From contig JAZDOK010000004.1 in assembly GCA_043798715.1 (NCBI GenBank), forward strand, positions 114,537 to 178,536: 64,000 bases of DNA. Reading direction: 5' to 3'. This document shows, one piece after another, positions 9,296 through 46,481 of this stretch. A model generated the notes under the pieces. That model saw nothing but the letters and a program-made list of their open reading frames with translations, did no database searches and was not told the DNA's origin. The stretch's first letter is position 1. Each line of letters starts with the position of its first letter. This stretch comes from a bacterium (lineage in GTDB: Bacteria > Vulcanimicrobiota > JAZDOK01). The translations under genes and the position numbers were made by a program.

Positions 9296-9368
9296 CGGTC
9301 AGGGTCATTTAAGGGTCAAAAGCGGGTTCTTTGTGAGCGGCGGTTTGGTGGAGAACGGCCCCTGAAGC

Positions 9369-9446
9369 TGGTCGGAGTGGGCGGACTTGAACCGCCGACC
9401 CCTAGCCCCCCATGCTAGTGCTCTAGCCAACCTGAGCTACACCCCG
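9369..9446 (-). tRNA. tRNA-Pro, anticodon GGG
   Basis: I folded the reverse complement by hand: acceptor CGGGGUG/CACUCCG, D-stem GCUC/GAGC, anticodon stem CUAGC/GCUAG with loop AUGGGGG, T-arm GGCGG-UUCAAGU-CCGCC, discriminator A, then CCA. Confidence 0.8.
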
Positions 9447-9613
9447 ACGCGCCCTATTATAACAAAACATTTGCTCATATGCAAGCGCCTTCATGAAAGG
9501 CGTTCATTCAAAGATGTGAGCCCTTCCGGGATGCGGGAGTACCGTCGCAAGGAGATGAAGAAGAGGAATCGAATATCTTTAAATAACGGGATGAAAGAAA
9601 GAGGAATGATGTA

Positions 9614-10642
9614 ATGTCAGAAAAGATCCGAGTTGCCGTCGACGCCATGGGCGGAGACTTTGCACCGGCGGAGATAGTCATAGGGGCTCTCATAGCGGCC
9701 CGGGAGTCGGCAGTCACACCGATCCTGGTCGGAGACGAAACCAAGATTAAAAACGAGTTGCCCGGCCAGGAGATTCCCCCCGGAATTGAGATCGTCCATA
9801 CGAGCGAATATATCTCCATGGAAGACTCCCCCTCGGCCGCCGTAAAAAAGAAAAAAAACGCTTCCATGGCGGTGGCGGCCAGACTGGTGAAAGAGGGAAA
9901 AGCGGATGCCATGGTTTCCGCCGGAAACACGGGCGCGCTCATGGAAGTCGCCCTGCTCACCTTCGGCAGAATTCACGGAATAAAACGCCCGGCGATTGCC
10001 ACCGTCTGGCCGGTAAAAACAGGGAGGGCCATGCTGCTGGATGCGGGAGCCAACGCCGAGTGCCGCCCGGAACATCTCCTTCAGTTTGCGATCATGGGTT
10101 CCATATACTGCGAAAAAGTTCTGGACATCGCGAACCCCAGAGTGGGCCTGATAAACATCGGGGAAGAATCCGGCAAGGGGAATTCTCTGACCGTTCAAAC
10201 CTATCAGCTCCTGAAGGGCTCAAACCTGAATTTTTACGGCAACGTGGAGGTGCAGGAATTCATCAACGGGGTTGTGGACGTCGCGGTTTGTGACGGTTTT
10301 GTCGGAAACATAGTACTTAAGACCGCCGAGGGCGTGGCCGCCTTAATTACGCAGATTCTGAAGGATTCCATTCCGAAGACTTTTATGAGAAAAATTGGAG
10401 GGCTTCTTCTTAAGCCCGTTTTCAGGGAACTTAAACACAAGCTGGACTCCAGCGAATACGGAGGAGCCCTTTTACTGGGCCTGCGGGGGATCTGCATCAA
10501 AAGCCACGGCCGGGCCAACGCCAAGGCGATAAAAAACGCCATCCGGGTGGCTGAGAAAGCCGTTGAAAGCCGTTTCATCGAAAAAATCAAGGAAAATTTC
10601 GAGAATTTTTCAGCGACGTCCAAACCGGAAGCCCGGCCGTGA
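9614..10642 (+). CDS. plsX: Phosphate acyltransferase PlsX
   Basis: N-terminus IRVAVDAMGGDFAP and overall PlsX-like sequence. It sits in the conserved neighbourhood upstream of recG. Confidence 0.9.
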   Translation: MSEKIRVAVDAMGGDFAPAEIVIGALIAARESAVTPILVGDETKIKNELPGQEIPPGIEIVHTSEYISMEDSPSAAVKKKKNASMAVAARLVKEGKADAMVSAGNTGALMEVALLTFGRIHGIKRPAIATVWPVKTGRAMLLDAGANAECRPEHLLQFAIMGSIYCEKVLDIANPRVGLINIGEESGKGNSLTVQTYQLLKGSNLNFYGNVEVQEFINGVVDVAVCDGFVGNIVLKTAEGVAALITQILKDSIPKTFMRKIGGLLLKPVFRELKHKLDSSEYGGALLLGLRGICIKSHGRANAKAIKNAIRVAEKAVESRFIEKIKENFENFSATSKPEARP

Positions 10643-21188: not shown

Positions 21189-21387
21189 GTCGTAATTTTA
21201 TTTCTTCAAGGCCCTTCCAAATCCTTTTTTCGTCACGCTCCCGGCCGCCTCGGGGGATTTTCCCATAAATTTCCTGAACATAGTTGACGAAATCTTTTGC
21301 GACTAATATACTAGGGGGGAAGAAGTTTCTTTACCTGAGAGAAATCGGGCATCTTCCATCAAGGGAAGGAGGTTTGGATCTCACGAC

Positions 21388-22740
21388 ATGAAAAACACAG
21401 CAATATGTCTGATTTTTCTGTTGATCATGGCCCTGGGGGGCGCATCTGCGGCCACCGCCCAGAGCGGGTTCACCCCGGTCTATGTCAACGGAGTCAGAAT
21501 CAATGTTTTTCCGGTTATCAAGGACGGGGTCGTCTTCCTGCCGCCCTACACCATGGCTCAATCACTGGGGGCCAGCATCAAGTATGACTACAGCCTGAAC
21601 ATTCTCAAGATCAACGACATCATGGTTTCAGCCACTCCGTACACTCCACCGGACGGCCAGATTCTTGTTCCGGCGGAGGCTCTTTGCCAGACCATCGGAG
21701 GCTCCCTGGAGTGGGATGGGCAGACCCGGGCCATTCGCATCACCACCCCCCGCTCGGGTGCCACTGTCGCCCAGCCCTATTCCCCGCCACCCATGGTTGC
21801 TCAGGCGCCGACAATCCCCAGTCTGGCTCCAATATCACCCACAATCACCGAACCGACGGGACCTTCCCCTTCATCCTCCTCCAAATCAGCCCCCAATCCT
21901 TACCAGGCCCAGGAAGCTCCTTTCCAGCCCCAGGCGGCACCCTACCAGCCATCCAATTCCGCCCCGAATCCCTACCAGGCCCAAACGTCTTCATCCTTTC
22001 CACCGCCCCCTTCCGGCTCTTCTTCCCTTTCATACTATCCGAGTGGCATTATCCCCATAACCACTCCTGTAACCACTAATAATCCACCTTACCAGCCCAC
22101 CGCTCCCTCATACAACCCCCCTGCTGCCGGCAACCAGGCGCCCGCCGGCAGTCCCCAAACCACCTCCCCTCAGGACACGATGAACTACAATCCGACAATG
22201 CCCCAGACGAGTTTCCCATCCGGCTCCATCTACCAGCAGCCGGCCTATTCAGCCAAATCCCCAACCTCCGCTCCCCCGCAGATCCCGTCATCAGTGCAGC
22301 AGCTCTCCCAGGCCACCATCTATAACCCCCCGGGGGCGGCTCCGCTGACTCCCAGCAACATACCGACTTTCTCCACCGACATTTTCCGGCCGGTCACGGC
22401 CAATAATTCGGTTTTTTCAGTGACCGTCACCAACATCGAAACCATGAATACCATTAAGGACTACTACAAGCCCAAGACCGGCTATAAATTTGTAACGGTC
22501 TACCTCTCCCAGCAGAACGTCTCAAATGAAGTGCAGATCTACACCGGCCGCTTCTCCATGCTTGACCAGAGCAACACCTCCTACGACTACGCCGAGCAGT
22601 TGAGCAACTTCTGGCTGATTATTCTCAAGCCGGGAGGAATCAACTTCGGATACCTGGTCTTTGAAGTGCCCCAGGATGCCAGACCCGCGCGCCTGCTTCT
22701 GCATGCGTTGAACCAGGCGCCGCTCAGCCTGAACTTGTAA
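21388..22740 (+). CDS. Secreted protein: Cu-amine-oxidase N-terminal-like domain, a Pro/Gln/Ser-rich linker, and a C-terminal DUF4352-like domain
   Basis: Signal peptide; VYVNGVRINVFPVIKDGVVFLPPY; roughly 200 aa of low-complexity P/Q/S/T/A sequence; C-terminal YKPKTGYKFVTVYLSQQNVSNEVQIY. Confidence 0.6.
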   Translation: MKNTAICLIFLLIMALGGASAATAQSGFTPVYVNGVRINVFPVIKDGVVFLPPYTMAQSLGASIKYDYSLNILKINDIMVSATPYTPPDGQILVPAEALCQTIGGSLEWDGQTRAIRITTPRSGATVAQPYSPPPMVAQAPTIPSLAPISPTITEPTGPSPSSSSKSAPNPYQAQEAPFQPQAAPYQPSNSAPNPYQAQTSSSFPPPPSGSSSLSYYPSGIIPITTPVTTNNPPYQPTAPSYNPPAAGNQAPAGSPQTTSPQDTMNYNPTMPQTSFPSGSIYQQPAYSAKSPTSAPPQIPSSVQQLSQATIYNPPGAAPLTPSNIPTFSTDIFRPVTANNSVFSVTVTNIETMNTIKDYYKPKTGYKFVTVYLSQQNVSNEVQIYTGRFSMLDQSNTSYDYAEQLSNFWLIILKPGGINFGYLVFEVPQDARPARLLLHALNQAPLSLNL

Positions 22741-24059: not shown

Positions 24060-24130
24060 TAGATATGCGGCTAATACGCTTGAGGGTTTGAACGCCTTCC
24101 AACACGGAAAGGAGGTTTAGATCTGACGAG

Positions 24131-24988
24131 TTGAAAAAAACAGCTTTATGCCTCGTTTTCCTGATGGTTATGGCCCTTCGGGGATCTCTTTCGGTCACCG
24201 CCCAGGGCGAATTCACCCGGGTCTATGTCAACGGGGTCATTGTCGATGTTTTCCCGGTCGTCAGGGAGGGAATAGTCTACCTGCCGCCCTATGTCATGGC
24301 TAAGTCGCTGGGGGCCAGCATCAGGTATGATTACAACCTGAAAATCCTCGCTATCAACGACATTATAATCCCTTTTTACACTCCCCCGGACGGCCGGACG
24401 CTGGTTCCCGTGGAAGAGCTCTGCCAGGCCATCGGATGCACCGTGGAGTGGGATGGGCGGACCCGGGCTATTCGGATCTCCACCTTCCCACCGGAGGTGA
24501 AACCTTCCCCGAAACCCACCGAAAATCCCTACGATAAGCAGTCTGTTCCCCTCCCCACCTCCACTCCGTCCTTTTTCCCCTCCGAAACTCCCATGCCAAC
24601 TCCCTTCAACCCAGGAAGCGACATCTTTATGCCGGTTACAGTCTCCAACGGAATTTTTTCGGTGACCGTCTCCGACATGAAAACAGTGAATGCCATAAAG
24701 GACTACTACAAGCCCAAGACCGGCTATAAATTTGTAACGGTCTACCTCTCCCAGCAGAACGTCTCAAACGAAGTGCAGATCTACTCAGGCCGATTCTCCA
24801 TGATTGACAAGAAAAACGCCACCTACGACTACGCCGAGCAGTTGAGCAACTTCTGGCTGATCATTCTCAGGCCTGGTGGAATCAACTTCGGATACCTGGT
24901 CTTTGAGGTGCCCCAGGATGCCAGACCCGTGCGCCTGCTCCTGCAGGCGAAGGCGCCGCTCAATATTAATTTGACAGGGGAGCGATAG
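24131..24988 (+). CDS. Secreted paralog of the 21388-22740 gene, lacking the low-complexity linker (TTG start)
   Basis: About 100 bp is nearly identical (1 mismatch) to 22455-22545, and the RBS region (ggaaggaggtttRgatctSacga) is also conserved. Confidence 0.6.
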   Translation: MKKTALCLVFLMVMALRGSLSVTAQGEFTRVYVNGVIVDVFPVVREGIVYLPPYVMAKSLGASIRYDYNLKILAINDIIIPFYTPPDGRTLVPVEELCQAIGCTVEWDGRTRAIRISTFPPEVKPSPKPTENPYDKQSVPLPTSTPSFFPSETPMPTPFNPGSDIFMPVTVSNGIFSVTVSDMKTVNAIKDYYKPKTGYKFVTVYLSQQNVSNEVQIYSGRFSMIDKKNATYDYAEQLSNFWLIILRPGGINFGYLVFEVPQDARPVRLLLQAKAPLNINLTGER

Positions 24989-34448: not shown

Positions 34449-37400
34449 GTGGCACACGGAAAAAGCGACGCCGACTATATCAAAACCACCAGCAACCTGG
34501 CCCGTTTCTGCGTCAACAACCCGTCCGTTGCGATCGTCTTCCTTCTGATCGCCATGGGCATCGGTTTCCTGGGCTATCGCTCAATGCCCCAGCGCAAGGA
34601 TCCGGATATCCCGATCCGACAGGCCGCCGTGCAGGTTCCCTGGCCGGGTAACACGCCCATGCAGATCGAGCTTCAAGTCACCAAAAAGATTGAGGACATC
34701 TGCGCGACGAACAAGAACTTCAAGAAAATTGAGTCCACCGTCCAGCCGGGCCTGTCGATCACTTACATCGAACTGGAAGACAGCATCAAAGACGCCGACA
34801 AGGAGTTCGACGACATAGGGATCAAGCTCATCAATGCAGCCCCGAGCCTGCCGCAGGGAGCCGGTCCCATCTACTACATAAAGGATTTCGGGGACACCGC
34901 GGCCCTGATGCTCACGGTAGCCAGTCCCCCCCTGTCCAATGTCGAGATCGAAGCCAGGGCGACGCCCATCGTGGAGCGGATCAATAAGACCCGGGCGAAG
35001 CGCAAGATCAAAAGTCCGGGATTTCCCTACACCATCGTCTACTGTTATCCCAAAAACGCGGACATGCGACTTCTCCAGAGCACCGTGGGAACCTTCCAGA
35101 TTGACGCCGCCGTGAGTGGATTTGCCCGCGACATCCGCCTCATCCAGGGAGAAGGCTTCCTCGGCATCGACCTTTTGAGCACCGGGAGCGAGCAGGATGT
35201 CATGGCCTATCTTCAAAATTACATGGCCCACAATCTGAAGCTCGAAGAGATGAATCCGGACACCTGGCTCCCGGTGGTAGTCCAGGATCCGCTACAGTTA
35301 AAAGATCGGCTGTCGGTTGCGGCCCCGGACCGCTATACCTACCGGGAGATGGACGATTTCACCCGAACCATAGCCGACGGCCTTCGTACCGTCCCCCTGG
35401 CCACTTCGGTGGGTCGCAAAGGTGCCCTGGGAGAGGCGATCTACCTTAACTATTCGCAGAGCCGGGTGGCCGCCTATGGGTTCAACCCGAGCAAATTGCC
35501 CGAGCTTCTGGGCGCCCGCAATATTACCGGAGCCTCCGGAACCGCCCAGGCCGAGGGACAGGGGATCCTCTTTCAGACGGCCGGTCAGTTCAAAAATCAG
35601 GACGAGATCGGAAACATGATGATAGGTCAGGCCCAGGGCTCGCCGGTTTACCTCCGCGACGTAGTGGGGATCACCCGCAGCTACAATCTGCCGGCCACCT
35701 ACCTCAACTACCTCACCTGGAAGAACGATGCCGGAGCGTGGCACCGAAACCGGGCCATCACCATCTCGGTGCAGATGAAGCCGGGGCAGAAGATCCATGT
35801 GCTCGGGAAACAGATCGACGATAAGCTCGCGGATCTGCGCCGCCTGGTGCCCTCCGACCTGGTCATCGTCCGCACCTCCGACCAGCCGCGGCAGGTGGCG
35901 GAGAACATCGAACTTTTGAACACCGCCCTCATCGAAGCCGTGCTTCTGGTGGTGCTCGTCTCCCTCATCGGTTTCTGGGACTGGCGCTCGGCCTTGCTTA
36001 TGGCGCTCTCCATCCCCCTTACCTTATCCATGACCTACGGTTGCATGAGCCTGCTGGGTCTTGACCTCCAGCAGGTCTCCATCGCCTCCCTCATCATCGC
36101 TCTGGGACTTCTGGTCGACAACCCGGTGGTGGCGGGAGACGCCATCAAGGTCTCCATGGCCTCCGGGCAGCCGGCTAAGATCGCCGCCTGGCTGGGGCCC
36201 ACGAAGCTCCTTAAGGCCATCACGTTTGCCACTCTCACCAATATTGCAGCCTACGTGCCGCTGGCCTTCCTGCCCGGAGATCCAGGGAAATTCTTATACA
36301 GTCTGCCTCTCGTCGTAGGCTCTTCCCTCATTTGCTCGGTCATTGTAGCCCAGGCCTTCGTACCGACCATCGGGCGCTTCCTCCTTCGGCCCCAGAAGGA
36401 GGCTTCCGTGGAAGCGATGCGAACCACCGGATTCACCCGCTACTACTATCGTTTTGCCAACTTCTGCGTTCATCACCGCTGGAGAGTGGTCGGCGTGTCG
36501 CTGGTTCTTCTCATGCTCGGGCTTTTCCTGGCCTCCAGTCTCCCGACCCAGATGTTCCCCGATGACGAACAGTATATCTCCACCGTGGACCTCTACATGC
36601 CCTGCAACGCCGGCCTTATGGCCACCAATATAAAGGCGAAGGAAGTGGAAAGAGCGATAGGCAATATCGCCACCAAGCTCGGGCAGGACCTTACAAAGCG
36701 GAATAAACCGGATGTGCACGTCATCAAGACGATCACCACCTTTGTCGGCGGCGGCGGCCCCCGCTTCTGGTTCTCCATACAGCCGGAGATGTCCATGCTA
36801 AGCTACGCGCAACTGATTGTGGAATGTAATGACAAACATTACACCAACACCCTGGTGGACCGCCTGATGGAACAGCTTCCGCAGCAGGTGGCCGGAGTCC
36901 GTATAGACGTGCGCAAACTCCAGAGCGGGACCTCCTTCAAAGTCCCGGTGCAGCTCTATGTGAGCGGCTCGGACAACGCGTGGAAACCGCTGGTGGGCCT
37001 CTCCAATAAGATCCAGCAGATCTACCGGGCGGACCCCCAGGCCATGTCCATCCAGGACGATTGGGGTGAGCCCATCGGGACGGTGAACCTGGAGCCCGAT
37101 CAGGACAAGGCCAACATGGTCGGGATTACCAGCCTGGACGTGGCCCGATCCATGGCCCTGGCCGTGCAGGGACTTCCCGTGGGCACAGTGCTGGAGGGTC
37201 AGTACAGCATTCCCATCATTGCACGCTTAAACTCCGATGAGCGGGCCCAGCTCTCCGACCTTCGCAACCTCTATATCTACTCCTCCGCCACCGGAAACAA
37301 GGTGCTTTTGAGCCAGGTGGTCAAGGGGAACATCGACCTCAGCCCGTATTATATTCAGCGCCGCAATTTTCACCGCTGCATCAAGCCGGGGGCCTTCCCC

Positions 37401-38075
37401 GTGCCTGAGGCCTGGGGCTCGACCATTTTCAAAAAGGCCTGGAAGCAGGTTAAAACTCTCACTCTTCCACCCGGCTACCGCATCGAGATCGGCGGGGAAA
37501 TGGAGAAGCAGCAGGAAAACTTCCCCCCCATGGGCATGGCCATGCTGATGTCCATCGTCGGAATCTTCCTTTGCCTGGTGCTGCAGTTCAACAGCGCCGC
37601 CAAGCCCTTTATCGTATTTGCCGCCGTGCCCTTCGGTCTGGTGGGCGCCCTTGGAGGCCTTATTCTTACGCACATGCCCTTCGGCTTCATGGCCTTCCTG
37701 GGAATCGCCAGCCTGGTCGGGGTCATAGTTAGCCATATCATCGTGCTCTTCGACTACATCGAAGTCATGCACTCCGAGGGGAAACCCATCATTGAGGCGG
37801 TCATCGATGCGGGCCTGGCCCGTCTTCGCCCCGTTCTCATCACGGTGTGCGCGACGGTCTTCGCCCTCTTCCCGCTGGCGGCACACGGAGGACCCCTCTG
37901 GCAGCCCATGTGCTTTACTCAAATCGGCGGCCTGACCCTGGCCACCCTGGTCACCCTGGTGCTGGTGCCGACCATCTACTGCATCTTCGTCCTGGATCTC
38001 AAGATCGTGAAGTGGGAAACCGCCCCCGCGACGGAAGCGGAGGGTGCGCTACCGACGGGAAAGAAAGATTCCTGA
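34449..38075 (+). CDS. RND efflux permease (AcrB/HAE1-like), unusually long at 1208 aa
   Basis: 12-TM architecture with two large periplasmic loops and characteristic TM4/TM10 regions. Confidence 0.85.
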   Translation: MAHGKSDADYIKTTSNLARFCVNNPSVAIVFLLIAMGIGFLGYRSMPQRKDPDIPIRQAAVQVPWPGNTPMQIELQVTKKIEDICATNKNFKKIESTVQPGLSITYIELEDSIKDADKEFDDIGIKLINAAPSLPQGAGPIYYIKDFGDTAALMLTVASPPLSNVEIEARATPIVERINKTRAKRKIKSPGFPYTIVYCYPKNADMRLLQSTVGTFQIDAAVSGFARDIRLIQGEGFLGIDLLSTGSEQDVMAYLQNYMAHNLKLEEMNPDTWLPVVVQDPLQLKDRLSVAAPDRYTYREMDDFTRTIADGLRTVPLATSVGRKGALGEAIYLNYSQSRVAAYGFNPSKLPELLGARNITGASGTAQAEGQGILFQTAGQFKNQDEIGNMMIGQAQGSPVYLRDVVGITRSYNLPATYLNYLTWKNDAGAWHRNRAITISVQMKPGQKIHVLGKQIDDKLADLRRLVPSDLVIVRTSDQPRQVAENIELLNTALIEAVLLVVLVSLIGFWDWRSALLMALSIPLTLSMTYGCMSLLGLDLQQVSIASLIIALGLLVDNPVVAGDAIKVSMASGQPAKIAAWLGPTKLLKAITFATLTNIAAYVPLAFLPGDPGKFLYSLPLVVGSSLICSVIVAQAFVPTIGRFLLRPQKEASVEAMRTTGFTRYYYRFANFCVHHRWRVVGVSLVLLMLGLFLASSLPTQMFPDDEQYISTVDLYMPCNAGLMATNIKAKEVERAIGNIATKLGQDLTKRNKPDVHVIKTITTFVGGGGPRFWFSIQPEMSMLSYAQLIVECNDKHYTNTLVDRLMEQLPQQVAGVRIDVRKLQSGTSFKVPVQLYVSGSDNAWKPLVGLSNKIQQIYRADPQAMSIQDDWGEPIGTVNLEPDQDKANMVGITSLDVARSMALAVQGLPVGTVLEGQYSIPIIARLNSDERAQLSDLRNLYIYSSATGNKVLLSQVVKGNIDLSPYYIQRRNFHRCIKPGAFPVPEAWGSTIFKKAWKQVKTLTLPPGYRIEIGGEMEKQQENFPPMGMAMLMSIVGIFLCLVLQFNSAAKPFIVFAAVPFGLVGALGGLILTHMPFGFMAFLGIASLVGVIVSHIIVLFDYIEVMHSEGKPIIEAVIDAGLARLRPVLITVCATVFALFPLAAHGGPLWQPMCFTQIGGLTLATLVTLVLVPTIYCIFVLDLKIVKWETAPATEAEGALPTGKKDS

Positions 38076-38122
38076 ACTGACATAATCTTGCGTTATTAAA
38101 CGCTTACAAAGTTGATTGCGTG

Positions 38123-38150
38123 AAAGGCCAAGGTTATGCCTTGGCCTTTT
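38123..38150 (+). terminator. Rho-independent terminator after the RND operon
   Basis: aaaggccaagg-ttatg-ccttggccttt, a perfect 11-bp stem followed by TTTT. Confidence 0.6.
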
Positions 38151-38208
38151 AGCGCTCACCTCTTGACTTACCTTAAGGTAGGCTGTAAGATATATATGGA
38201 GGTATAAT

Positions 38209-38490
38209 ATGTTGGAATATATTTTGGGCGTTGAGGAGGCCAGAAAGAATCTGGGCGATTTGATCGTCCGTGTTGCCAGAAAAAAACAACCTGTTGTGAT
38301 CACCCGCCGGACGAAAGAAAAAGCGGTCCTTGTAAACTACGAAGAGTACAAGAAACTGGAAGAAATGGCGGAGTCGGTTGCGGCCAATGACGTTTCCCTG
38401 GCATTAAAAAGAATCAGACGTTCGGTGGCTGCTGAGGGATTATCGGTTGAGACGGTTGAAATGTCTATCCGCGAGGTTCGCGGCAGGTGA
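38209..38490 (+). CDS. Phd/YefM-family antitoxin
   Basis: N-terminus EARKNLGDLIVRVARKKQPVVITRRTKEKAVLVNYEEY; 4-bp overlap with the downstream PIN gene; a TTGACT-N17-TAAGAT promoter lies upstream. Confidence 0.7.
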   Translation: MLEYILGVEEARKNLGDLIVRVARKKQPVVITRRTKEKAVLVNYEEYKKLEEMAESVAANDVSLALKRIRRSVAAEGLSVETVEMSIREVRGR

Positions 38491-38894
38491 AAGTGGTCCT
38501 TGATACCAACACCCTGGTTTCAGCAATCGGCTGGTCGGGACCTCCCCAAAGAATTTTAAATGCGTGCTTGCAAGGAAAATTCGAGCTTTACATCAGCCAG
38601 GCTCTCCTGGAGGAATTTATCCGGGTCATTTCCCGACCGAAACTCAAGGTTATTGCGCAGCATCCGGATTTGCCCTTGATATTATCCTGGCTCTATCAGC
38701 CATCGCACATCGTTCGCCCCAAAACCGTTATCAATGCCATTAAGAAGGACCCCGCGGACAACAAAGTGCTTGAATGCGCCGTGGAAGCAGGCGCCGAGGT
38801 TATAGTTTCCGGCGACAAGCACCTTCTTGCCCTGGAGGAGTTTCAAGGGATCCAAATACTGACGCCCGCCGCTGCAACCAGATTGTTTTTATAG
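38487..38894 (+). CDS. PIN-domain toxin (TIGR00305-type)
   Basis: VLDTNTLVSAI..., and conserved acidic residues of the PIN fold. Confidence 0.7.
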   Translation: MKVVLDTNTLVSAIGWSGPPQRILNACLQGKFELYISQALLEEFIRVISRPKLKVIAQHPDLPLILSWLYQPSHIVRPKTVINAIKKDPADNKVLECAVEAGAEVIVSGDKHLLALEEFQGIQILTPAAATRLFL

Positions 38895-38967
38895 CCTCCG
38901 CACCTTATTTCCCCAGCAACCGATCACTAATTCCATACCCATGTCCCCTTCATTTTTCCCCCATATT

Positions 38968-40203
38968 CTACCACGATATATCCGGCCAATCACTCATTAA
39001 AAGTTGGCGAATCTGAGTGGCTGGGAAATCGTTATTATTTGCAATGCGCAAGGCCAGGTTCTGAATAAATTTCACGGAGACCGCAGGTTTTCCAAGAGCG
39101 GCGGCGGCGTCTCTCAGTGCGTCGACCGCTCTGACCAGAGTTGCCCACTCGATTTCGTAGCCGTATCCTTCAAGAAGCAGGTCCATGGCCCGCAAGGCCA
39201 CGGCGAACGAGAATTCGGGAGCGTCAAACCTGTTCTGATAAGCAGCCGTTATTAACGTGCCGGGGTTCAGTGTCCCATTTAAGGCGCACGTGTAAGCAAT
39301 ATCCATATGTCCGGCACTGCCGGCCGCTGCGAACCAGTTTCCGGGGTTGTCCGAATCGTCAATGAGATCCTGGAGGATGCGCCGGGTTTCGAGCTGCGGA
39401 TATTTTTTTACGATCGCACGATACTGGTTGAGATAGGTGTGGCCTACCCGGAGAAAGCGGCCATATTGCTTATAAGCCTGCTCCCAATGGCCCTCCTCTA
39501 TCAAGAGACGCTCGCAGAAACAGGTTATGGCCGTATCATCGTATCCCAGCGGGGAGCGGCAGTCTTCGGCGAAAGAAATAGCTTCTTCGATTTTCCCCTG
39601 GCGGCGCAGAGCTTCCGCCCAATAGTATTGCTCGGACCAATGTCGGTGGGAAGCTGATTTTAAAAGCGATTGGAGTTCATTATATCGTCCGGCTTCCAGC
39701 AGGCAGGAGAAGCACATGATGTTGTCCGGTGAATAGATGAACTTTCCGGAAAGCGAGGATAAGCTCGAGACCAACTCCAACAATCGGTCCGCCCACTCGC
39801 GGATCAGGTCCGGCTCTTTGCAAATTATCCCCCAAATCCGGCGCACCTGAAAAAGATAGTCAACGCCGTCATCCTGAACGGCCGAATAAAGCCTGTCAAT
39901 CCATTTGCGCCTGGTGGCCGTATCAGCCGGCGCCTGGACAAGGAGGGGAAGGAGTTTGTCAAGCGTGAGCCAGACGGCTGTCCCAAGTGCCCCCGAGGAG
40001 GAGTCCACCGCCTGAAGCGCCGGCCAGAGGCGTTCGCAAAGAGTCACGACGCCCTCCCCGGCACGAATAGGATCGGCCTTCGATGTTCGCTTGATCTCCG
40101 AAGTTGCCTCATTCAGCCTTTTACAGGCCAAAACAGACCCCCGCCACCCGAAGGCTCTGGTTCTTAAATATCGCTTAAACTGCCAAGCCGCTGACGTCGT
40201 CAT
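38968..40203 (-). CDS. Hypothetical 411-aa alpha-helical protein inside the toxin-antitoxin/defence island
   Basis: No recognisable motif; a possible TPR-like stretch (YYWAEALRRQGKIEEAISFAED). Confidence 0.4.
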   Translation of the reverse strand: MTTSAAWQFKRYLRTRAFGWRGSVLACKRLNEATSEIKRTSKADPIRAGEGVVTLCERLWPALQAVDSSSGALGTAVWLTLDKLLPLLVQAPADTATRRKWIDRLYSAVQDDGVDYLFQVRRIWGIICKEPDLIREWADRLLELVSSLSSLSGKFIYSPDNIMCFSCLLEAGRYNELQSLLKSASHRHWSEQYYWAEALRRQGKIEEAISFAEDCRSPLGYDDTAITCFCERLLIEEGHWEQAYKQYGRFLRVGHTYLNQYRAIVKKYPQLETRRILQDLIDDSDNPGNWFAAAGSAGHMDIAYTCALNGTLNPGTLITAAYQNRFDAPEFSFAVALRAMDLLLEGYGYEIEWATLVRAVDALRDAAAALGKPAVSVKFIQNLALRIANNNDFPATQIRQLLMSDWPDISW

Positions 40204-40342
40204 TATTTTTCAATTCTTTTAAATGATTTGAATTTGACCTGATAGCTTAAGGTCGTCCAGATTTCGGTTTCAAGACTCTTGACATTCTCTACATTCGTGT
40301 TGACGGAGAAATCAATTCCGATTCGGGGAAAAGAGGATACTG

Positions 40343-40398
40343 CCTTTTTAGCACGGCAGATTCTCATTCGGCGTAAAAGGCTCTGACCCCTTTATTCC
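40343..40398. repeat. Junction repeat, modules W-X (cctttttagcacggcagattctcattcggcgtaaaagg + ctctgacccctttattcc)
   Basis: Matches 44461-44515 with a few mismatches. Confidence 0.8.
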
Positions 40399-40450
40399 TG
40401 GCGAAACGAGGACGACGACAGGGCAGGAGCATCAGCGACAGCCTCAAATA

Positions 40451-40750
40451 TCAGGAGGCGCGTGGCAGCTTTCGGATGTCTTTTAATTCCTCTTCAATCC
40501 TCTGTTTTTCTTCATCCAGGTCGTAGTCGTTCTGGAGGCCGAGCCAGAACTGGGGGGAATTTCCGAAATAACAGCTGAATCTAAGAGCCGTATCTGCAGT
40601 AATTCTCCGCTTCTTTTTCAGAATCTCAGAAATTCTCGTCTGGGGTATTTTAGTTTCTTTCGCAAGGCGATAGGGTGTGATCCCGAGCGGTTTTAAGAAC
40701 TCCTCATCCAGTACCTCCCCCGGATGGATGTTTGCAAGTTTCAGCATCAT
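40451..40750 (-). CDS. higA: HigA-family antitoxin (XRE helix-turn-helix)
   Basis: IHPGEVLDEEFLKPLGITPYRLAKETKIPQTRISEI matches the HigA helix-turn-helix. Confidence 0.85.
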   Translation of the reverse strand: MMLKLANIHPGEVLDEEFLKPLGITPYRLAKETKIPQTRISEILKKKRRITADTALRFSCYFGNSPQFWLGLQNDYDLDEEKQRIEEELKDIRKLPRAS

Positions 40751-40765
40751 TTCACCTCTATTTCT

Positions 40766-41047
40766 CTAATGATAGTCAACGATTTCTACGTTATAACAAT
40801 TCCCGTTTTGCCATTCGAAACAAATCCTCCATCGGTCATTGATGCGGATGCTGTACTGTCCTTCCCGATCGCCTTTTAGCCTTTCAAGAAAATTCGAGGG
40901 CGGCACCCGCAAATCATTGAGCATATGGGAATTATTGAGCATCCTTAACTTTCTCCTGGCGATGGCCTGAATGTCAAAAGGCAATTTTCTCGAAGGGAGG
41001 CCATCCCATATTTTTCTGGTTTCTTTCGAGCGAAATGACTGAATCAC
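40766..41047 (-). CDS. higB: HigB toxin (RelE/ParE superfamily)
   Basis: FRSKETRKIWDG...NDRWRICFEW..G.CYNVEIVDYH; toxin-first HigBA gene order. Confidence 0.85.
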   Translation of the reverse strand: MIQSFRSKETRKIWDGLPSRKLPFDIQAIARRKLRMLNNSHMLNDLRVPPSNFLERLKGDREGQYSIRINDRWRICFEWQNGNCYNVEIVDYH

Positions 41048-41302
41048 AGCACTATAGTATCACATCGCGTTACTATTGTCAAAAAGCAGCAATCAAGGGG
41101 ATATGCCTACACAGAACTAAGTAAGATGTCCCCATAAATGTTAGGAGGATGACAGAATCCCTGGGTAATTAAGGTGACATATTCCCTGGGGAAGGACACC
41201 GGCACGAAGGAAAAGGAGAACCGGGCAAAAATCTTGAATTTTCCCTTGGAACAAGTTTTACGCGTTCCGTCTAATTATTATTAGACCACAGGGATGGGAT
41301 GA

Positions 41303-41618
<316 letters not shown>

Positions 41619-41646
<28 letters not shown>

Positions 41647-41712
41647 GCTTTGTCGTAAAGGGCTCTGACCCTTTTCCCCCTATTCTGTCAATTGTGTAGA
41701 CGTGACCCCTAT
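41619..41712. repeat. Junction repeat, modules Y-X-Z; module Y overlaps the 3' end of brnA
   Basis: Y = cagccgacgcacaggaacgcgcggctgagctttgtcgt (identical at 44517-44554). X = ctctgaccctttt. Z = tattctgtcaattgtgtagacgYgacccctat (also at 43040-43071 and 44585-44617). Confidence 0.85.
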
Positions 41713-41713
41713 G

Positions 41714-42976
41714 TCATAAGGCAAACCAGGGATAGACAATCGTTCCAGCTCTTTTAAAGGACGAATCCCCGCCATACACAAGAGCGGCCGGATCGTTGGA
41801 GCGGCTGGAGAGATTCCGCCAGTCATTCAATCCTTTGAAAAAGTCGCCCGCAATGGTCTGAGCTGATTTAACCTCCACCGGAGTCAGCCGGCCACCCTGT
41901 TCGACGAGGAGATCCACCTCCCGTCCGGATGTGTCACGCCAGAAACTCAGGGCAGGCAGCTCGCCCCGGTTCAAGAAGTTCTTGTAGAATTCGGATAAGA
42001 CGTAACTTTCAAAAATGCCGCCCTTCATCGCGTGATGGTGAAGCTCCTCCGGGAATCGAATCTGAAGAAGGAAGCACAAAAGACCGGTGTCCAGGAAATA
42101 AAGCTTCGGGCTTTTGATAAGGCGTTTCCCGAAGTTCTGGTGATGAGGTCTGAGAAGCACGATCAGAAAGCTGGCCTCCAGAACCGAAATCCAGCGTCTT
42201 GCGGTCGTATGCGTGATGCCGCAGTCTGAGGCCAGGGACGACAAATTTAACAGCTGGGCGTTCCGACCGGCACAGAGCCGGACAAATCGGCCGAAGGACT
42301 CCAGGTCGCCCATCTTCAAAACATTCCGGACGTCCCGCTCCAGGTAAGTCTGGTAATAATTTCCCAGCCAGTCCTGCGGGGGTAGCCTTTTGTCGTGAAT
42401 CCGTGGATAAAAACCTGTAAAAAGGACTTCTGCCAGTTTTTTTCCCGGTGCTCCGGTACCCTGATAAGTTTTTCTTCCCAGTTCCGAAAGAGTAAAAGGC
42501 TTATGACCGGACAGTTCGGCATGGGAAAACGGCAAAAGGTGCAGAACGGCACATCGTCCGGCCAGAGATTGGGAAATGCCCTGGAGAAGGAGAAAATTAT
42601 GCGAGCCTGTCAGGATGAATTGTCCCGCTTTATTCTGTTCATCCACCATGACTTGAATATAGGAAAACAAGTCCGGGACGCGCTGGGCTTCGTCCAGAAT
42701 AACCGGGCCTTCAAACTGCGAGAGAAACCCCCGGGGATCTTCCATAGCAAAAGCGCGTTGATCGGGAAGCTCTAGAGTTGAGTAGGCGTAATCTTTAAAT
42801 ACGGCTCTGACCAGGGTGGTTTTGCCCGATTGACGCGGCCCCGTGACTGTTACGACCGGATATCGGCCGGCGGCCTCCTTGAGTTTTTTCGCCAGGGTTC
42901 GAGGAATCATGGCCGTACCTCTTTTGCTATTTGAATATCCAATATTCAATTTACATGATATCTCGAATTTTGTCAA
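41714..42976 (-). CDS. AAA+ ATPase with a C-terminal DUF4143 domain (COG1373-type)
   Basis: Walker A GPRQSGKTT, Walker B VILDEAQ, and a C-terminal DUF4143-like region. Confidence 0.75.
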   Translation of the reverse strand: MTKFEISCKLNIGYSNSKRGTAMIPRTLAKKLKEAAGRYPVVTVTGPRQSGKTTLVRAVFKDYAYSTLELPDQRAFAMEDPRGFLSQFEGPVILDEAQRVPDLFSYIQVMVDEQNKAGQFILTGSHNFLLLQGISQSLAGRCAVLHLLPFSHAELSGHKPFTLSELGRKTYQGTGAPGKKLAEVLFTGFYPRIHDKRLPPQDWLGNYYQTYLERDVRNVLKMGDLESFGRFVRLCAGRNAQLLNLSSLASDCGITHTTARRWISVLEASFLIVLLRPHHQNFGKRLIKSPKLYFLDTGLLCFLLQIRFPEELHHHAMKGGIFESYVLSEFYKNFLNRGELPALSFWRDTSGREVDLLVEQGGRLTPVEVKSAQTIAGDFFKGLNDWRNLSSRSNDPAALVYGGDSSFKRAGTIVYPWFAL

Positions 42977-42999
42977 CCGATGGAGGCAGACTTCTCCTC

Positions 43000-43093
43000 A
43001 AGGGCAGCCTGCCCCCTTTATTCTCGGCATCTTTTCCCCTATTCTGTCAATTGTGTAGACGCGACCCCTATATCCTTCGACCCCTATATCCTT
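43000..43093. repeat. Junction repeat, diverged X plus Z, followed by a tandem 16-bp duplication (cgacccctatatcctt, twice)
   Basis: Module Z lies at 43040-43071; the 16-mer copies are at 43062-43077 and 43078-43093. Confidence 0.8.
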
Positions 43094-43361
43094 GCCTCCA
43101 GGAAAATGATTGTTTCTTTCCCGGATAGATCCGACATAAAAAGTATTTTTCCTACTGAATTGGAAAACTATTTTCTGACAGCCTGTGCCCCCAATGTCAC
43201 CCGTTCGCCCTGAGCCTGTCGAAGGGCAAGACCCATCCGTTCATGGTTCGACAAGCTCACCACGAACGGAAACGAAGCGAGAAGGAGAAAGGAGACGCTT
43301 GTTTTTTTCAGGGAATTCGTGACTGGCACAAATTATTCAATTTCCATTTTCGGACAGCCTG

Positions 43362-44348
43362 TCAAGGCTTGTCCTTCGTTGGCGGCGGCAATTGCTTGAC
43401 GGCGCGGTCGAAGTCGGATTCGAGGTGCCGATCCTCGATATTGCGAAACTCGACGAACTCGCGTTCCGAGTGGGTTCGGGCCAACTCGGCCGACACTTTA
43501 CCGGCGTTCTGTAATATTTCCCGGTCGTTCAATGTCAAAAAACCCTCCAGCTTCGTGATCCAATCGTTCATCGTCATGGCTATCCGACGCTCGGCCTGGG
43601 ACTCGGCAAAGATGAGATACTGTTCGACGAGGTTATTGAGCGCACGCAGCTCTTCTTCATTTAAATAGTTTTTTGCAATGGCGACGTCCGATTTGCGGAT
43701 ACGCGCCCCCTCCCAGTTAGTGAGACCCATGTTCGGCATTCTGCTGTCAGCGCGGAACAAGATAACCTCGACGGCGGTCTGGCCGTGAATAGCGTAATGC
43801 ACCTTGTTTTGCACCGTAGCGAAGAACTCCTGGGTGAGCGGGTGGTCCTTGTCGTAGTCTATGCTCGTGGCGTAGATGTCTGTGATTTTCTGGTAAAAAC
43901 GCCGCTCGCTCGTGCGGATATCCTGGATGCGCCGGGTGAGCTCCTCGAAGTAGTCGTTTCCTGCTTTCGGGTTTTTCAGACGCTCGTCATCCAGCACAAA
44001 GCCCTTGATGATGTACTCTTTAAGCTTGTCTGCGGCCCACTGACGGAAGCGCACGGCCACCGGGCTACGCACCCTGAAACCCAGGGCCAGGACCATGTCG
44101 AGGTTGTAATGAGCCACCTCGTACTGTTTACCGTCTGCGGCAGTTGTTCGGAAAAACCGAACAACTGAATCTTCCTCCAGTTCTTCGTCCTCAAAGATGT
44201 GTTTGATGTGTTCACTGATGGTGCCCTTGGCCTTGCCGAACAACTCCACGAGCTGCTTCTGGTTGAGCCAGATGTTCCGGTCTTCGAGGCGAACGTCGAG
44301 TTTCGTGCGGCCGTCCTCGCTCTGGTAGATGAGAATCTGGTTCATCAC
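43362..44348 (-). CDS. RhuM-family protein (virulence/defence-associated, DNA-binding)
   Basis: N-terminus IYQSEDGRTKLDVRLEDRNIWLNQKQLVELFGK...VRFRQWA; overall pattern like rhuM. Confidence 0.7.
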   Translation of the reverse strand: MMNQILIYQSEDGRTKLDVRLEDRNIWLNQKQLVELFGKAKGTISEHIKHIFEDEELEEDSVVRFFRTTAADGKQYEVAHYNLDMVLALGFRVRSPVAVRFRQWAADKLKEYIIKGFVLDDERLKNPKAGNDYFEELTRRIQDIRTSERRFYQKITDIYATSIDYDKDHPLTQEFFATVQNKVHYAIHGQTAVEVILFRADSRMPNMGLTNWEGARIRKSDVAIAKNYLNEEELRALNNLVEQYLIFAESQAERRIAMTMNDWITKLEGFLTLNDREILQNAGKVSAELARTHSEREFVEFRNIEDRHLESDFDRAVKQLPPPTKDKP

Positions 44349-44460
44349 AGGCTCCTCACGTTTAGTAGCCCGTGCTGGCTGAGGATGGCGGCAAGGTTGG
44401 TCTTGGCGACATCATCGGCAAAGGCGCTGTCACGGAAGACGCAAGAGAAAAGAGGACAGA

Positions 44461-44617
44461 GCCTTTTTAAGCACGGCAGATTCTAATTCGTCGTAAAGGG
44501 CACTGTCCCCTTTATCCCAGCCGACGCACAGGAACGCGCGGCTGAGCTTTGTCGTTCGTCGTAAGGGGCTCTGACCCTTTTATCCTTATTCTGTCAATTG
44601 TGTAGACGCGACCCCTA
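44461..44617. repeat. Most complete junction repeat: modules W-X-Y-(tail of W)-X-Z
   Basis: Contains a copy of the 3' end of brnA (module Y) detached from any brnA gene. Confidence 0.85.
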
Positions 44618-44744
44618 TGACCTTGAATTTTCCCTCCCAGATCATCTCCTTAAAAAAAACATGAAGTCGAGCATCCCGACTGATTGTACCACACCCACTG
44701 TGACAAAGACTGTCATTGTGATTTCAGATGACGATTTTTTTATA

Positions 44745-44784
44745 TAATCCCCGGCATAAACCTGATTGCCTCGCCCATTGCCAA
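44745..44784. repeat. Left imperfect direct repeat flanking the NERD cassette
   Basis: aatccccggcataaacctgattgcctcgcccattgccaag, compared with 45784-45833 aatccccggcatcgacctgatttaccctcccccttgccag. Confidence 0.75.
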
Positions 44785-44965
44785 GGAAGTCCAATTGAAG
44801 CCCCTCTACTGTCACCAATAGAAAATCATCTCAATTTCGCCGTTTTCCCCTGCATGCAAGAAAAAAGACCTGTCACAGACCGCCTTTCCCCCGCCAAAAA
44901 GGTGTGGCGGCCACTTTTGTATAATTGAAACCAATAAAAATTTTTCCAAAAAACGGAGTGAGTGT

Positions 44966-45766
44966 ATGCAAGAGGCTAAAAAAAGAACAGGTAAAAAATC
45001 TCCCATAAAAAAAGCACCTCTTCGTCTTCCCGGACAGTTCTTGGATGAGAAGATAAAAGATATAAAGTATGACATGCTATGGAATGTCTTTGTGTGCCTT
45101 ATGTATTTAACTTCGCTTGTAATCGCATGGCTGTTCTACTTGTTCCCAAAGACATTTTTGTTGCCTCTTTTACTTCTACTGACCCTTGTTTCTGTACTTG
45201 TTTTTATTTTCTATGGGACAAGAATTTCTAAACAATGGAAGGAAATAGACAACCACAAGCTCGGCCGCGTCGGGGAAATAGAAGTCGGGCAGACCTTGGA
45301 AAAATTACGAGAGCAGGGCTGCCGGATCTTTCACGACATTCAGATGGGAAATTATAATATCGATCATGTCGTTTTATCTACTAAGGGGGTTTTCGTGATT
45401 GAGACGAAGACGCGAAGAAAACCGGCAGAAGGCCGCACTGAGATTGTTTATGAGGGTGATTTGATTAGAATAAACGGTTCGCCGAATAAAACTGACATTG
45501 AGCAGGCAAAAAGTCAGGCCTGCGGTTTTCATAAATTTTTCAAGCTAATTACAGGGAATTCTTATTTTGTAAGGCCTGTTATTGTGTATCCTGGTTGGTA
45601 TGTGACTTCTTCTTTTGATCCCGAGAAAAGCGATATGTGGGTGCTAAACCCCGATCAACTCAGTCAAAAGATCGCAGCTCAACCTGAAGTCATCAAACCC
45701 AAGGAACTGGAGACTATTGCAAATCAATTGGAATACCATATACGCGAAAAATCTGATTTAAAGTAG
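44966..45766 (+). CDS. NERD-domain (nuclease-related) protein with N-terminal TM helices
   Basis: GRVGEIEVGQTLEKLREQGCRIFHDIQMGNYNIDHVVLSTKGVFVIETKT is the NERD core. GC content is about 38% against roughly 60% for the surrounding genome. Confidence 0.75.
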   Translation: MQEAKKRTGKKSPIKKAPLRLPGQFLDEKIKDIKYDMLWNVFVCLMYLTSLVIAWLFYLFPKTFLLPLLLLLTLVSVLVFIFYGTRISKQWKEIDNHKLGRVGEIEVGQTLEKLREQGCRIFHDIQMGNYNIDHVVLSTKGVFVIETKTRRKPAEGRTEIVYEGDLIRINGSPNKTDIEQAKSQACGFHKFFKLITGNSYFVRPVIVYPGWYVTSSFDPEKSDMWVLNPDQLSQKIAAQPEVIKPKELETIANQLEYHIREKSDLK

Positions 45767-45783
45767 ATACATTTTTTAAATAA

Positions 45784-45833
45784 AATCCCCGGCATCGACC
45801 TGATTTACCCTCCCCCTTGCCAGAACAGGAGTA
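45784..45833. repeat. Right imperfect direct repeat flanking the NERD cassette
   Basis: See 44745-44784. Confidence 0.75.
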
Positions 45834-46042
45834 TCGACGGGAGAGGTTGTGAGCCACAGAGCGAAAGCGCTGGATCGAAGAAGGTTAAAGTGAAGGCTTC
45901 GTAGAGATAACGGCTCTGGGTAGAGCAGACCTTTAGGTCTGCAAAACTAGCTTCATGCCCCCGCACAGTCATCGTCCTAATCATGGCGTCCACCGGTACT
46001 TTTTCATCCGGCTTCTCGGCTTTTCAGGGAAGTTCGAACCCT

Positions 46043-46249
46043 TTATTTCAAGACCTCCCACCGCCCGCCCTTGTCGGGGCCGATTCGTTTCAAGCAGCCG
46101 TGCATCTTGCACATGGCGATGACACGGTTTGTCCCACGGCCCCAGACCTCCACCGCTCCGGCACGGTGGAAGAGGTCGGCTGTAGTGGGGTTTCGCAGAA
46201 GGTCTGTAAGTTGCCTTGATTCAGTGAAATTTCGCATGTTATTCCCCAT
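46043..46249 (-). pseudogene. C-terminal fragment of an AlbA_2/HATPase_c_4-type putative transcriptional regulator
   Basis: ADLFHRAGAVEVWGRGTNRVIAMCKMHG resembles the conserved C-terminus FRRxGLIERWGSGIxRI of that family; the ORF is only 68 aa. Confidence 0.4.
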
Positions 46250-46481
46250 AGTACCTATTTTATTACTCGTTTAATCAGGTATTACCTGTTTCCCTTTTTC
46301 CATGTTGCATCCCGTCCTCGTCCAAGGCACTCCACCCTTTTGACACGGTTCTCTTTTTTCAGCACTTTGCGTATCATATCAACGCTCCCCCCTCTGCCTA
46401 ATTCTTCAAATAATGAGATGAAACCGGCCATAATTCCTCCGCTTGGGAGGAAAGATGAGGCGTTTACCTAATTATTGACAG

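Follow-up and report, generated by a model that had tools for sequence, protein, structure and literature searches.

An AT-rich NERD nuclease gene bracketed by an imperfect direct repeat in a hypervariable chromosomal slot of a Vulcanimicrobiota bacterium

A gene for a NERD-domain nuclease lies between the two copies of an imperfect direct repeat in a 64,000-nucleotide stretch of DNA (the window) from a bacterium of the Vulcanimicrobiota (assembly GCA_043798715.1, contig JAZDOK010000004.1, positions 114,537 to 178,536). The best explanation of this arrangement, which we hold at even odds (a probability of about 0.5), is that the NERD stretch is a horizontally acquired single-gene module in a hypervariable slot of the chromosome, and that the repeat is best read as an attL/attR-like insertion junction. 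The module would span from ~44.6 or 44.74 kb to 45.82 kb, and it looks like the least ameliorated, newest-looking layer of a toxin-antitoxin (TA) and defence island. Taken as a whole the arrangement is of a known kind, namely ordinary defence-island cargo in a chromosomal hotspot, with an uncharacterised membrane-NERD family and a suggestive boundary repeat. The analysis shows that the repeat is real, that the gene is intact and foreign in composition, and that the slot is a hotspot with an empty state; how the module was inserted, what part the repeat played and that the protein acts in defence are inferred. The features of the module are as follows.

44665..44681, minus strand: terminator-like hairpin within the 110 nt of AT-rich DNA that separate the last junction repeat of the island (end 44624) from the left NERD repeat
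44735..44783, plus strand: left copy of the NERD repeat (TTTTTTTATATAATCCCCGGCATAAACCTGATTGCCTCGCCCATTGCCA), from local alignment, pattern scan and self-blastn
44891..44910, plus strand: terminator-like GC hairpin (CCGCCAAAAAGGTGTGGCGG) followed by a T run (CCACTTTTGT), just upstream of the putative NERD promoter
44918..44925, plus strand: candidate promoter element, extended -10-like (TGTATAAT), which lies 40 nt ahead of the NERD start codon, read from the sequence
44955-44958, plus strand: GGAG ribosome-binding site of the NERD gene, read from the sequence
44966..45766, plus strand: NERD gene, an intact coding sequence (CDS) of 266 aa (Pfam NERD PF08378)
45773..45822, plus strand: right copy of the NERD repeat (TTTTTAAATAAAATCCCCGGCATCGACCTGATTTACCCTCCCCCTTGCCA), which starts 6 nt past the NERD stop codon
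44577..45786, no strand: maximum-likelihood low-GC segment (GC 0.406 inside and 0.547 outside), from two-breakpoint likelihood segmentation

The NERD gene is foreign in composition

A reading of the window made from its sequence alone (the sequence-only reading) had put the gene and its flanks at about 38% GC against roughly 60% elsewhere. The direction of this skew holds, but the figures are 40-41% and 54%, since the NERD CDS has 40.3% GC and the repeat-to-repeat stretch 41.1%, against 54.2% in the whole window and 52-57% in the flanking genes. Among all 1-kb windows (mean 0.541, standard deviation (sd) 0.034) the NERD stretch has the lowest GC, ~4 sd under the mean. The proposed check on codon composition confirms the skew, as the GC content of third codon positions (GC3) is 0.42 in the NERD gene and 0.57-0.78 in neighbouring genes.

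The low GC might be a side effect of hydrophobic membrane coding alone, a condition that the sequence-only reading had itself listed against its claim, and the repeat might be a coincidence. The part of the gene that encodes a membrane hairpin does have the lowest GC at second codon positions (GC2, 0.28), but the soluble 180-residue nuclease part (GC 0.42, GC3 0.44) has nearly the same composition as the membrane part and is well below the GC3 of the neighbours. In addition, homologues with the same hairpin have the GC of their surroundings in each of three contigs (0.49/0.50, 0.55/0.55 and 0.39/0.40 for gene and surroundings), and the repeat stands ~9 sd or more over background. This alternative is already refuted. 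Because the soluble domain is equally AT-rich and the homologues match the GC of their own surroundings, the NERD gene is compositionally foreign, a conclusion that is well supported. Its nearest relatives are just 41-42% identical in protein sequence, so the donor is unsampled.

A four-state insertion hotspot

The NERD gene is part of a variable island whose slot is bounded on one side by the gene of an AcrB-type RND pump (34449-38075) and on the other by the gene of a GT4 glycosyltransferase (46482/46536-47690). Relatives whose GT4 proteins are 92%, 89% and 80% identical to that of the window have contigs that are syntenic on both sides of the slot, and blastn against them places its conserved edges at window positions 38080 and 46445. 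The contents of the slot in the window and in five loci of relatives (L013 to L017) are these.

L015, 9892-10000: empty slot, 109 nt between the two genes
L013, L014 and L017 (in L013, 7444-9909): a different AbrB-type antitoxin/PIN pair, scraps common to this island, and an HNH_2 gene
L016, 3632-9963: RHS toxin cluster
window, 38081..46444, no strand: variable island of 8.4 kb between the RND pump and GT4 genes, edges by blastn against relatives
window, 46445..46469, plus strand: conserved native site (GGGAGGAAAGATGAGGCGTTTACCT) at the right slot edge, single-copy in the window, from blastn against relatives

The slot between the RND pump and GT4 genes is therefore a four-state hypervariable insertion hotspot in this lineage, and L015 demonstrates the empty site for the island as a whole. 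The PIN protein of L013, L014 and L017 is 36% identical to that of the window, and the left breakpoint falls at the same nucleotide in the window and in L013, just after TGAACTGA, though their TA modules differ.

At the other edge, the conserved DNA upstream of the GTG start of the GT4 gene, from 46445 onward, is the native hotspot site. This 25-nt site (GGGAGGAAAGATGrGGCrTTTACCT) occurs twice in L013, at 8169-8193 and 9910-9934, with 23/25 positions identical, and the two copies bracket a 1.7-kb block, also found in L014 and L017, that contains RhuM and BrnT-region scraps and the HNH_2 gene. Repeat-bracketed, gene-sized blocks recur in the slot, a pattern consistent with small modules being inserted or exchanged in series that does not single out a mechanism. 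As for the GT4 gene itself, the start called in its relatives is the GTG at 46536, behind a GAAGGAG ribosome-binding site, while the window annotation begins at 46482, and from this start-site signal the gene is probably annotated 18 codons too long.

The flanking direct repeat

The repeat that brackets the NERD gene is ~50 nt long and imperfect: local alignment pairs 44735-44783 with 45773-45822 (49 and 50 nt) at ~80% identity, with one small indel zone. The two copies agree exactly over AATCCCCGGCAT (12 nt) and over ACCTGATT (8 nt). The gene begins 182 nt past the left copy and ends 6 nt ahead of the right one. The sequence-only reading was right that such a repeat exists, but both copies start ~10 nt further left than it had them, at 44735 and at 45773, and the end of the right copy is 45822/3 and not 45833.

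The pair is real and not a product of chance. It has a Smith-Waterman score of 21, where 627 equally spaced pairs of 200-nt windows average 8.4 (sd 1.4) and 1000 shuffles average 8.0 (sd 1.1) and reach 14.5 at most; the score stands ~9 sd or more over background. A 20-base core pattern matches the 64-kb window exactly twice at <=3 mismatches, where 0 matches are expected. Self-blastn gives no cross-hits between this repeat and the other repeats of the island, so it is a distinct family, as had been proposed.

Several known kinds of element can be set against these copies. In single-strand folding both copies, on both strands, do no better than shuffles (z -0.9 to +1.4) and the repeat contains no GTTRRRY-type (R''/R') boxes, which together rule out an attC-like repeat of the integron cassette type. 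An insertion sequence (IS) or a miniature inverted-repeat transposable element (MITE) would show terminal inverted repeats within short exact target duplications; no terminal inverted repeats were found in the NERD repeat, and the sole inverted pair near the module ends (12/14 nt) is located 35 nt into the CDS and does not rise above chance in a set of 37 such pairs. A dif site is 28 bp long, with two 11-bp arms around a 6-bp spacer. By inspection, GCATAA of the left copy alone resembles a XerC arm, it is unconserved in the right copy, and no XerD-like arm is seen, so a Xer/dif-type site was rejected. So was a reverse-strand sigma-54 promoter, for which the spacing is wrong and unconserved in the second copy. 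The sequence AATCCCCGGCAT..ACC loosely resembles the T-arm and acceptor of a tRNA, but ARAGORN and Rfam find no tRNA or tmRNA 3'-end that could serve as an att core, and the similarity runs further on both sides than a tRNA end would account for. Rfam at gathering and E-value thresholds gives nothing in or near the repeats. Comparable flanking repeats are absent around the NERD homologues at three other loci (L008, L009 and L010).

That nearly every junction in the island has repeats raises the prospect that the NERD repeat belongs to a dispersed host family, of the repetitive extragenic palindromic (REP) or MITE type, that gathers at module junctions and flanks the NERD gene by accident; the host genome inspected, moreover, is 64 kb only. 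Yet no third copy is present at <=3 mismatches in the window or in L013 to L017, the five syntenic loci. Searched as an exact pattern, the repeat core gave 2 matches in genome contigs and 5 in metagenome contigs, all within unrelated CDS and without flank similarity, numbers close to chance expectation, and 0 matches in the viral contig collection. The copies also have neither a hairpin nor terminal inverted repeats. A dispersed family is thus an improbable source of the pair.

Still less probable is a duplicated regulatory element, a promoter or operator unrelated to mobility. Both copies do contain a -10-like hexamer (TATAAT and TAAAAT), and the right copy is promoter-like by score (TTTAAA-18-TAAAAT). 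However, a 3-nt indel in the left copy leaves the spacing unconserved, the 650 nt past the right copy hold minus-strand gene fragments and no plus-strand gene, and a better promoter candidate for the NERD gene exists 40 nt upstream of its start.

How the module may have arrived

The most likely, if unproven, reading of the repeat is that it is the junction product of an insertion. A small circular or excised DNA may have recombined into a similar pre-existing sequence, with a crossover inside AATCCCCGGCAT or ACCTGATT, and the direct repeat would be the product of that event; the recombination enzyme would be encoded elsewhere and supplied in trans. The right GC change point (support 45781-45811) lies inside the right repeat copy.

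Several observations weigh against this account, or against the defence role attached to it. The repeat copies are just ~80% identical and their similarity spreads to both sides of the exact cores, which is unusual for a simple attP x attB reaction. On the left, the GC boundary (support 44542-44647) is 100-190 nt beyond the repeat copy and close to where the last island junction repeat ends (44624). Neither the module nor the island and window open reading frames (ORFs) scanned gave an integrase, transposase or resolvase domain, and no empty or single-copy ancestral site for the NERD module itself turned up in relatives or in genome, metagenome and viral collections, which do not include the source genome. 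The protein has no match in PADLOC-DB 2.0 at E<=0.01, and its family is nearly absent from plasmids and phages (one partial plasmid match, no phage match and one IMG/VR contig). Finally, SmdA, the sole experimentally studied membrane-anchored bacterial NERD protein found, acts in cell division and not in defence.

The sequence-only reading had proposed a recent site-specific insertion that left attL/attR-like repeats. The foreign gene, the hotspot, the separate repeat family and the right change point within the right copy are what stand of that proposal; because the copies are only ~80% alike, both 'recent' and 'site-specific' would have to be inferred. The search for an empty site that it recommended succeeded for the whole slot, in L015, and failed for a single-copy site of the NERD module.

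The same boundary data bring in the main rival, which we consider unlikely, though less so than any other alternative: both repeat copies may have been imported together with the NERD gene in a ~1.2-kb fragment (~44.6-45.8 kb) by illegitimate or homology-facilitated recombination. In the donor, the gene would then have had one copy of a local intergenic element on either side, and the repeats would say nothing about the insertion mechanism. The maximum-likelihood left GC edge (44542-44647) lies to the left of the left copy, where the last junction repeat ends, and both copies resemble the insert in that their left halves are AT-rich, as such an import would have it. The RhuM gene next door, moreover, is a gene-sized transfer without conserved flanks, with 91.7% DNA identity to a contig of an unrelated metagenome-assembled genome (MAG). 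On the other hand, the 110 nt that shift the left boundary are intergenic, and intergenic DNA of the host is AT-rich too; both copies turn GC-rich in their right halves; the right GC jump falls inside the right copy and not past it; and no donor is known.

Insertion at attL/attR-like junctions, the reading preferred here, can also be compared with systems that move single genes. Like an integron cassette or an attL/attR element, the NERD module is a promoter-bearing single gene between similar direct sequences, and it stands among other repeat-bounded modules. In contrast to them it has no attC hairpin, no R''/R' motifs and no IntI or integrase, and gene orientations in the island are mixed. 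Direct repeats are found at both ends, as in an attL/attR element, but no recombinase was found in or beside it among the ORFs scanned. Defence and TA hotspot islands are alike in that cargo between the same core genes varies among relatives, with the empty state included, and in that this cargo consists of TA pairs, candidate defence genes, nucleases and decaying fragments. They differ in that here no integrase or transposase is seen in or beside the slot and gene-sized modules are parted by short direct repeats.

A more speculative view, which we hold to be doubtful, is that the slot is serviced by cassette-like exchange of a non-integron kind, in which gene-sized, promoter-bearing modules enter or are swapped at short similar sequences and leave imperfect direct repeats of 25-50 bp, and that the membrane-tethered NERD protein is a new stand-alone defence nuclease that acts at the membrane. 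The candidate modules would be, in this window, NERD, RhuM and the DUF4143 ATPase and, in relatives, HNH_2, and the recombinase would again be encoded elsewhere.

The NERD protein and its family

The domain assignment of the sequence-only reading is borne out: Pfam NERD (PF08378) matches residues 100-209 of the protein (record MFH0801033.1) over profile positions 2-111 of 111, with an E-value of 1.1e-15 and 58.6 bits against a cutoff of 22.1. The protein begins with a basic N-terminal motif (KKSPIK..PLR.PGQSL) and continues with a two-helix membrane hairpin (~residues 37-86) and then a cytoplasmic NERD domain of the PD-(D/E)XK type, the superfamily to which NERD has been assigned (Grynberg & Godzik 2004, as cited in PMC9040797). 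In an alignment of 18 diverse members E104, H123, D124, N131, D133, H134, E146, T147, K148 and T149 are invariant, the catalytic set of the PD-(D/E)XK superfamily, with E104, D133, E146 and K148 in the pattern E...D...ExK.

The AlphaFold (AF2) model is confident (pLDDT 89.6, pTM 0.79) and has two long helices followed by an alpha-beta domain. Its top Foldseek matches in the PDB are the PD-(D/E)XK nucleases SfsA, AF1548, Can2, McrC and Hjc, with weak E-values of 3e-3 or worse, and no solved structure is detectable by sequence. Like Pfam NERD single-domain proteins, then, it has the domain above cutoff, retains the acidic and lysine catalytic residues and is predicted to adopt a PD-(D/E)XK fold; it differs from them in that its subfamily adds the conserved basic N-terminal motif and the membrane hairpin. 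The full-length architecture forms ~222 clusters at 50% identity (E<=1e-30), and the NERD domain ~1750 clusters at E<=1e-10. This membrane-hairpin subfamily has no studied member.

Upstream of the gene, the candidate promoter TGTATAAT was omitted by the consensus promoter scan, there being no -35 hexamer, and its assignment as a promoter stays putative. Together with the ribosome-binding site it suggests that the module may carry its own expression signals.

The most likely role of the protein, judged from its genomic context and intact catalytic site, would be that of a stand-alone defence or exclusion nuclease against incoming nucleic acid at the membrane, where the N-terminal two-helix hairpin would tether the NERD nuclease to the inner membrane face. 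Two characterised proteins frame this proposal. ZwsA (Zowangsin) is an RNA endonuclease with a NERD domain; it cleaves the genomes of RNA phages and defends Pseudomonas as a stand-alone effector, for which the catalytic E/D/E/K residues of the NERD domain are required (preprint 10.64898/2026.04.06.716636). It is a large multidomain protein (VHS, DUF647, NERD and S4) with no membrane hairpin described (preprint 10.64898/2026.04.06.716636), an architecture unlike that of the 266-aa window protein, which has the NERD domain only; nothing here indicates an RNA target. SmdA of Staphylococcus aureus is membrane-anchored by one helix and has a cytoplasmic NERD-like domain, lacks several of the most conserved NERD residues and is an essential, lineage-conserved cell-division factor (PMC9040797). 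In comparison with this description of SmdA, the window protein keeps the conserved NERD residues and is the product of an accessory, foreign gene.

Homologues of the NERD protein were placed in their genomic contexts, with the following neighbours.

L008: housekeeping genes
L009: HsdM, HNH_2 and DUF2726
L010: prophage with integrase
L018 and L019: Mrr, HNH and resolvase
L020: IS3 and SLFN-type helicase

The setting is thus one of restriction, defence, prophage or IS in 4/5 of the contexts examined. In L009 (4001-5853) the NERD homologue lies directly upstream of an HNH_2 gene, and in the slot of L013 an HNH_2 gene (8619-9578) stands where the window has NERD. This association could be a coincidence or a functional link between two nuclease families.

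The rest of the island and of the window

Apart from the island the window is ordinary chromosome, with genes for PlsX, RecG, BipA, acetate kinase, MoeA and GatB, the RND efflux operon and flagellar export genes. The island contains a TPR protein, a PIN toxin together with a Phd-like antitoxin, a HigBA-like pair and a decayed BrnT/BrnA pair, in which the BrnT-like toxin ORF is cut to 34 aa beside an intact-looking BrnA (41303-41407, minus strand). It further contains a DUF4143 ATPase, RhuM, NERD and minus-strand gene fragments, including a HATPase_c_4 remnant. Two of its genes match PADLOC candidate defence families, RhuM matching PDC-S05 and the DUF4143 ATPase PDC-S01.

Past the right NERD repeat and before the GT4 gene, the minus strand holds, at 46043-46431, the HATPase_c_4 fragment (2.9e-5) and a wHTH-like fragment. 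The idea that the NERD gene split a minus-strand ORF finds no evidence here, as the HATPase_c_4 fragment (46043-46249) ends at its own stop codon.

The other junctions of the island have repeats of their own. Direct repeats of 41-43 nt (…TATTCTGTCAATTGTGTAGACGYGACCCCTAT) with 93% identity lie at 41673-41715, 43032-43077 and 44584-44624 and bracket first DUF4143 and then RhuM, and longer repeat pairs join 41617-41713 with 44516-44619 and 40328-40404 with 44447-44524. These junction repeats hold a 31-nt hairpin unit, TTCGTCGTAAAGGGCWCTGWCCCYTTTATCC, in four copies, and they probably correspond to the families that the sequence-only reading had called W, X, Y and Z. They may be REP-like, or att-like through serial insertion.

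The RhuM gene (43362-44390, minus strand) has 91.7% DNA identity over 1029 nt to QYPO01000100.1 (L021, 4956-5984), a contig of a MAG labelled Methanosarcinales archaeon. The homology breaks off precisely at the stop codon on one side and 42 nt ahead of the start on the other, and in L021 a DUF4143 ATPase gene, dissimilar in DNA to that of the window, directly follows RhuM. The match would reflect either a binning error or the very recent passage of a gene-sized unit from one domain of life to another. RhuM proteins 84-94% identical to this one are found in MAGs of many phyla (6553 matches at E<=1e-100), and RhuM was discarded for this reason as a synteny handle in the search for an empty site.

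Between RhuM and DUF4143, positions 43185-43300 (GTTCGCCCTGAGCCTGTCGAAGGGC…GTTCGACAAGCTCACCACGAACGG) presumably represent a repeat that is widespread in environmental bacteria, and which we take to give rise to spurious 'PEPVEG' and 'SLSNHE' ORFs. Elsewhere in the window, 21353-22676 and 24096-24918 (ORFs 21388-22740 and 24131-24988) share 78-87% DNA identity ~2.7 kb apart, and from this similarity the pair looks like a local paralogous duplication.

Implications

Should the repeats be genuine recombination junctions, this locus and its relatives would provide a small natural series on the entry of single defence genes into a chromosomal hotspot without a resident integrase, which takes in the empty slot, its three alternative fillings and several modules bounded by repeats. 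The NERD protein, for its part, is a member of a sizeable, unstudied subfamily of membrane-tethered NERD nucleases that is found mostly in restriction or defence neighbourhoods, which makes it a reasonable candidate for defence screens.

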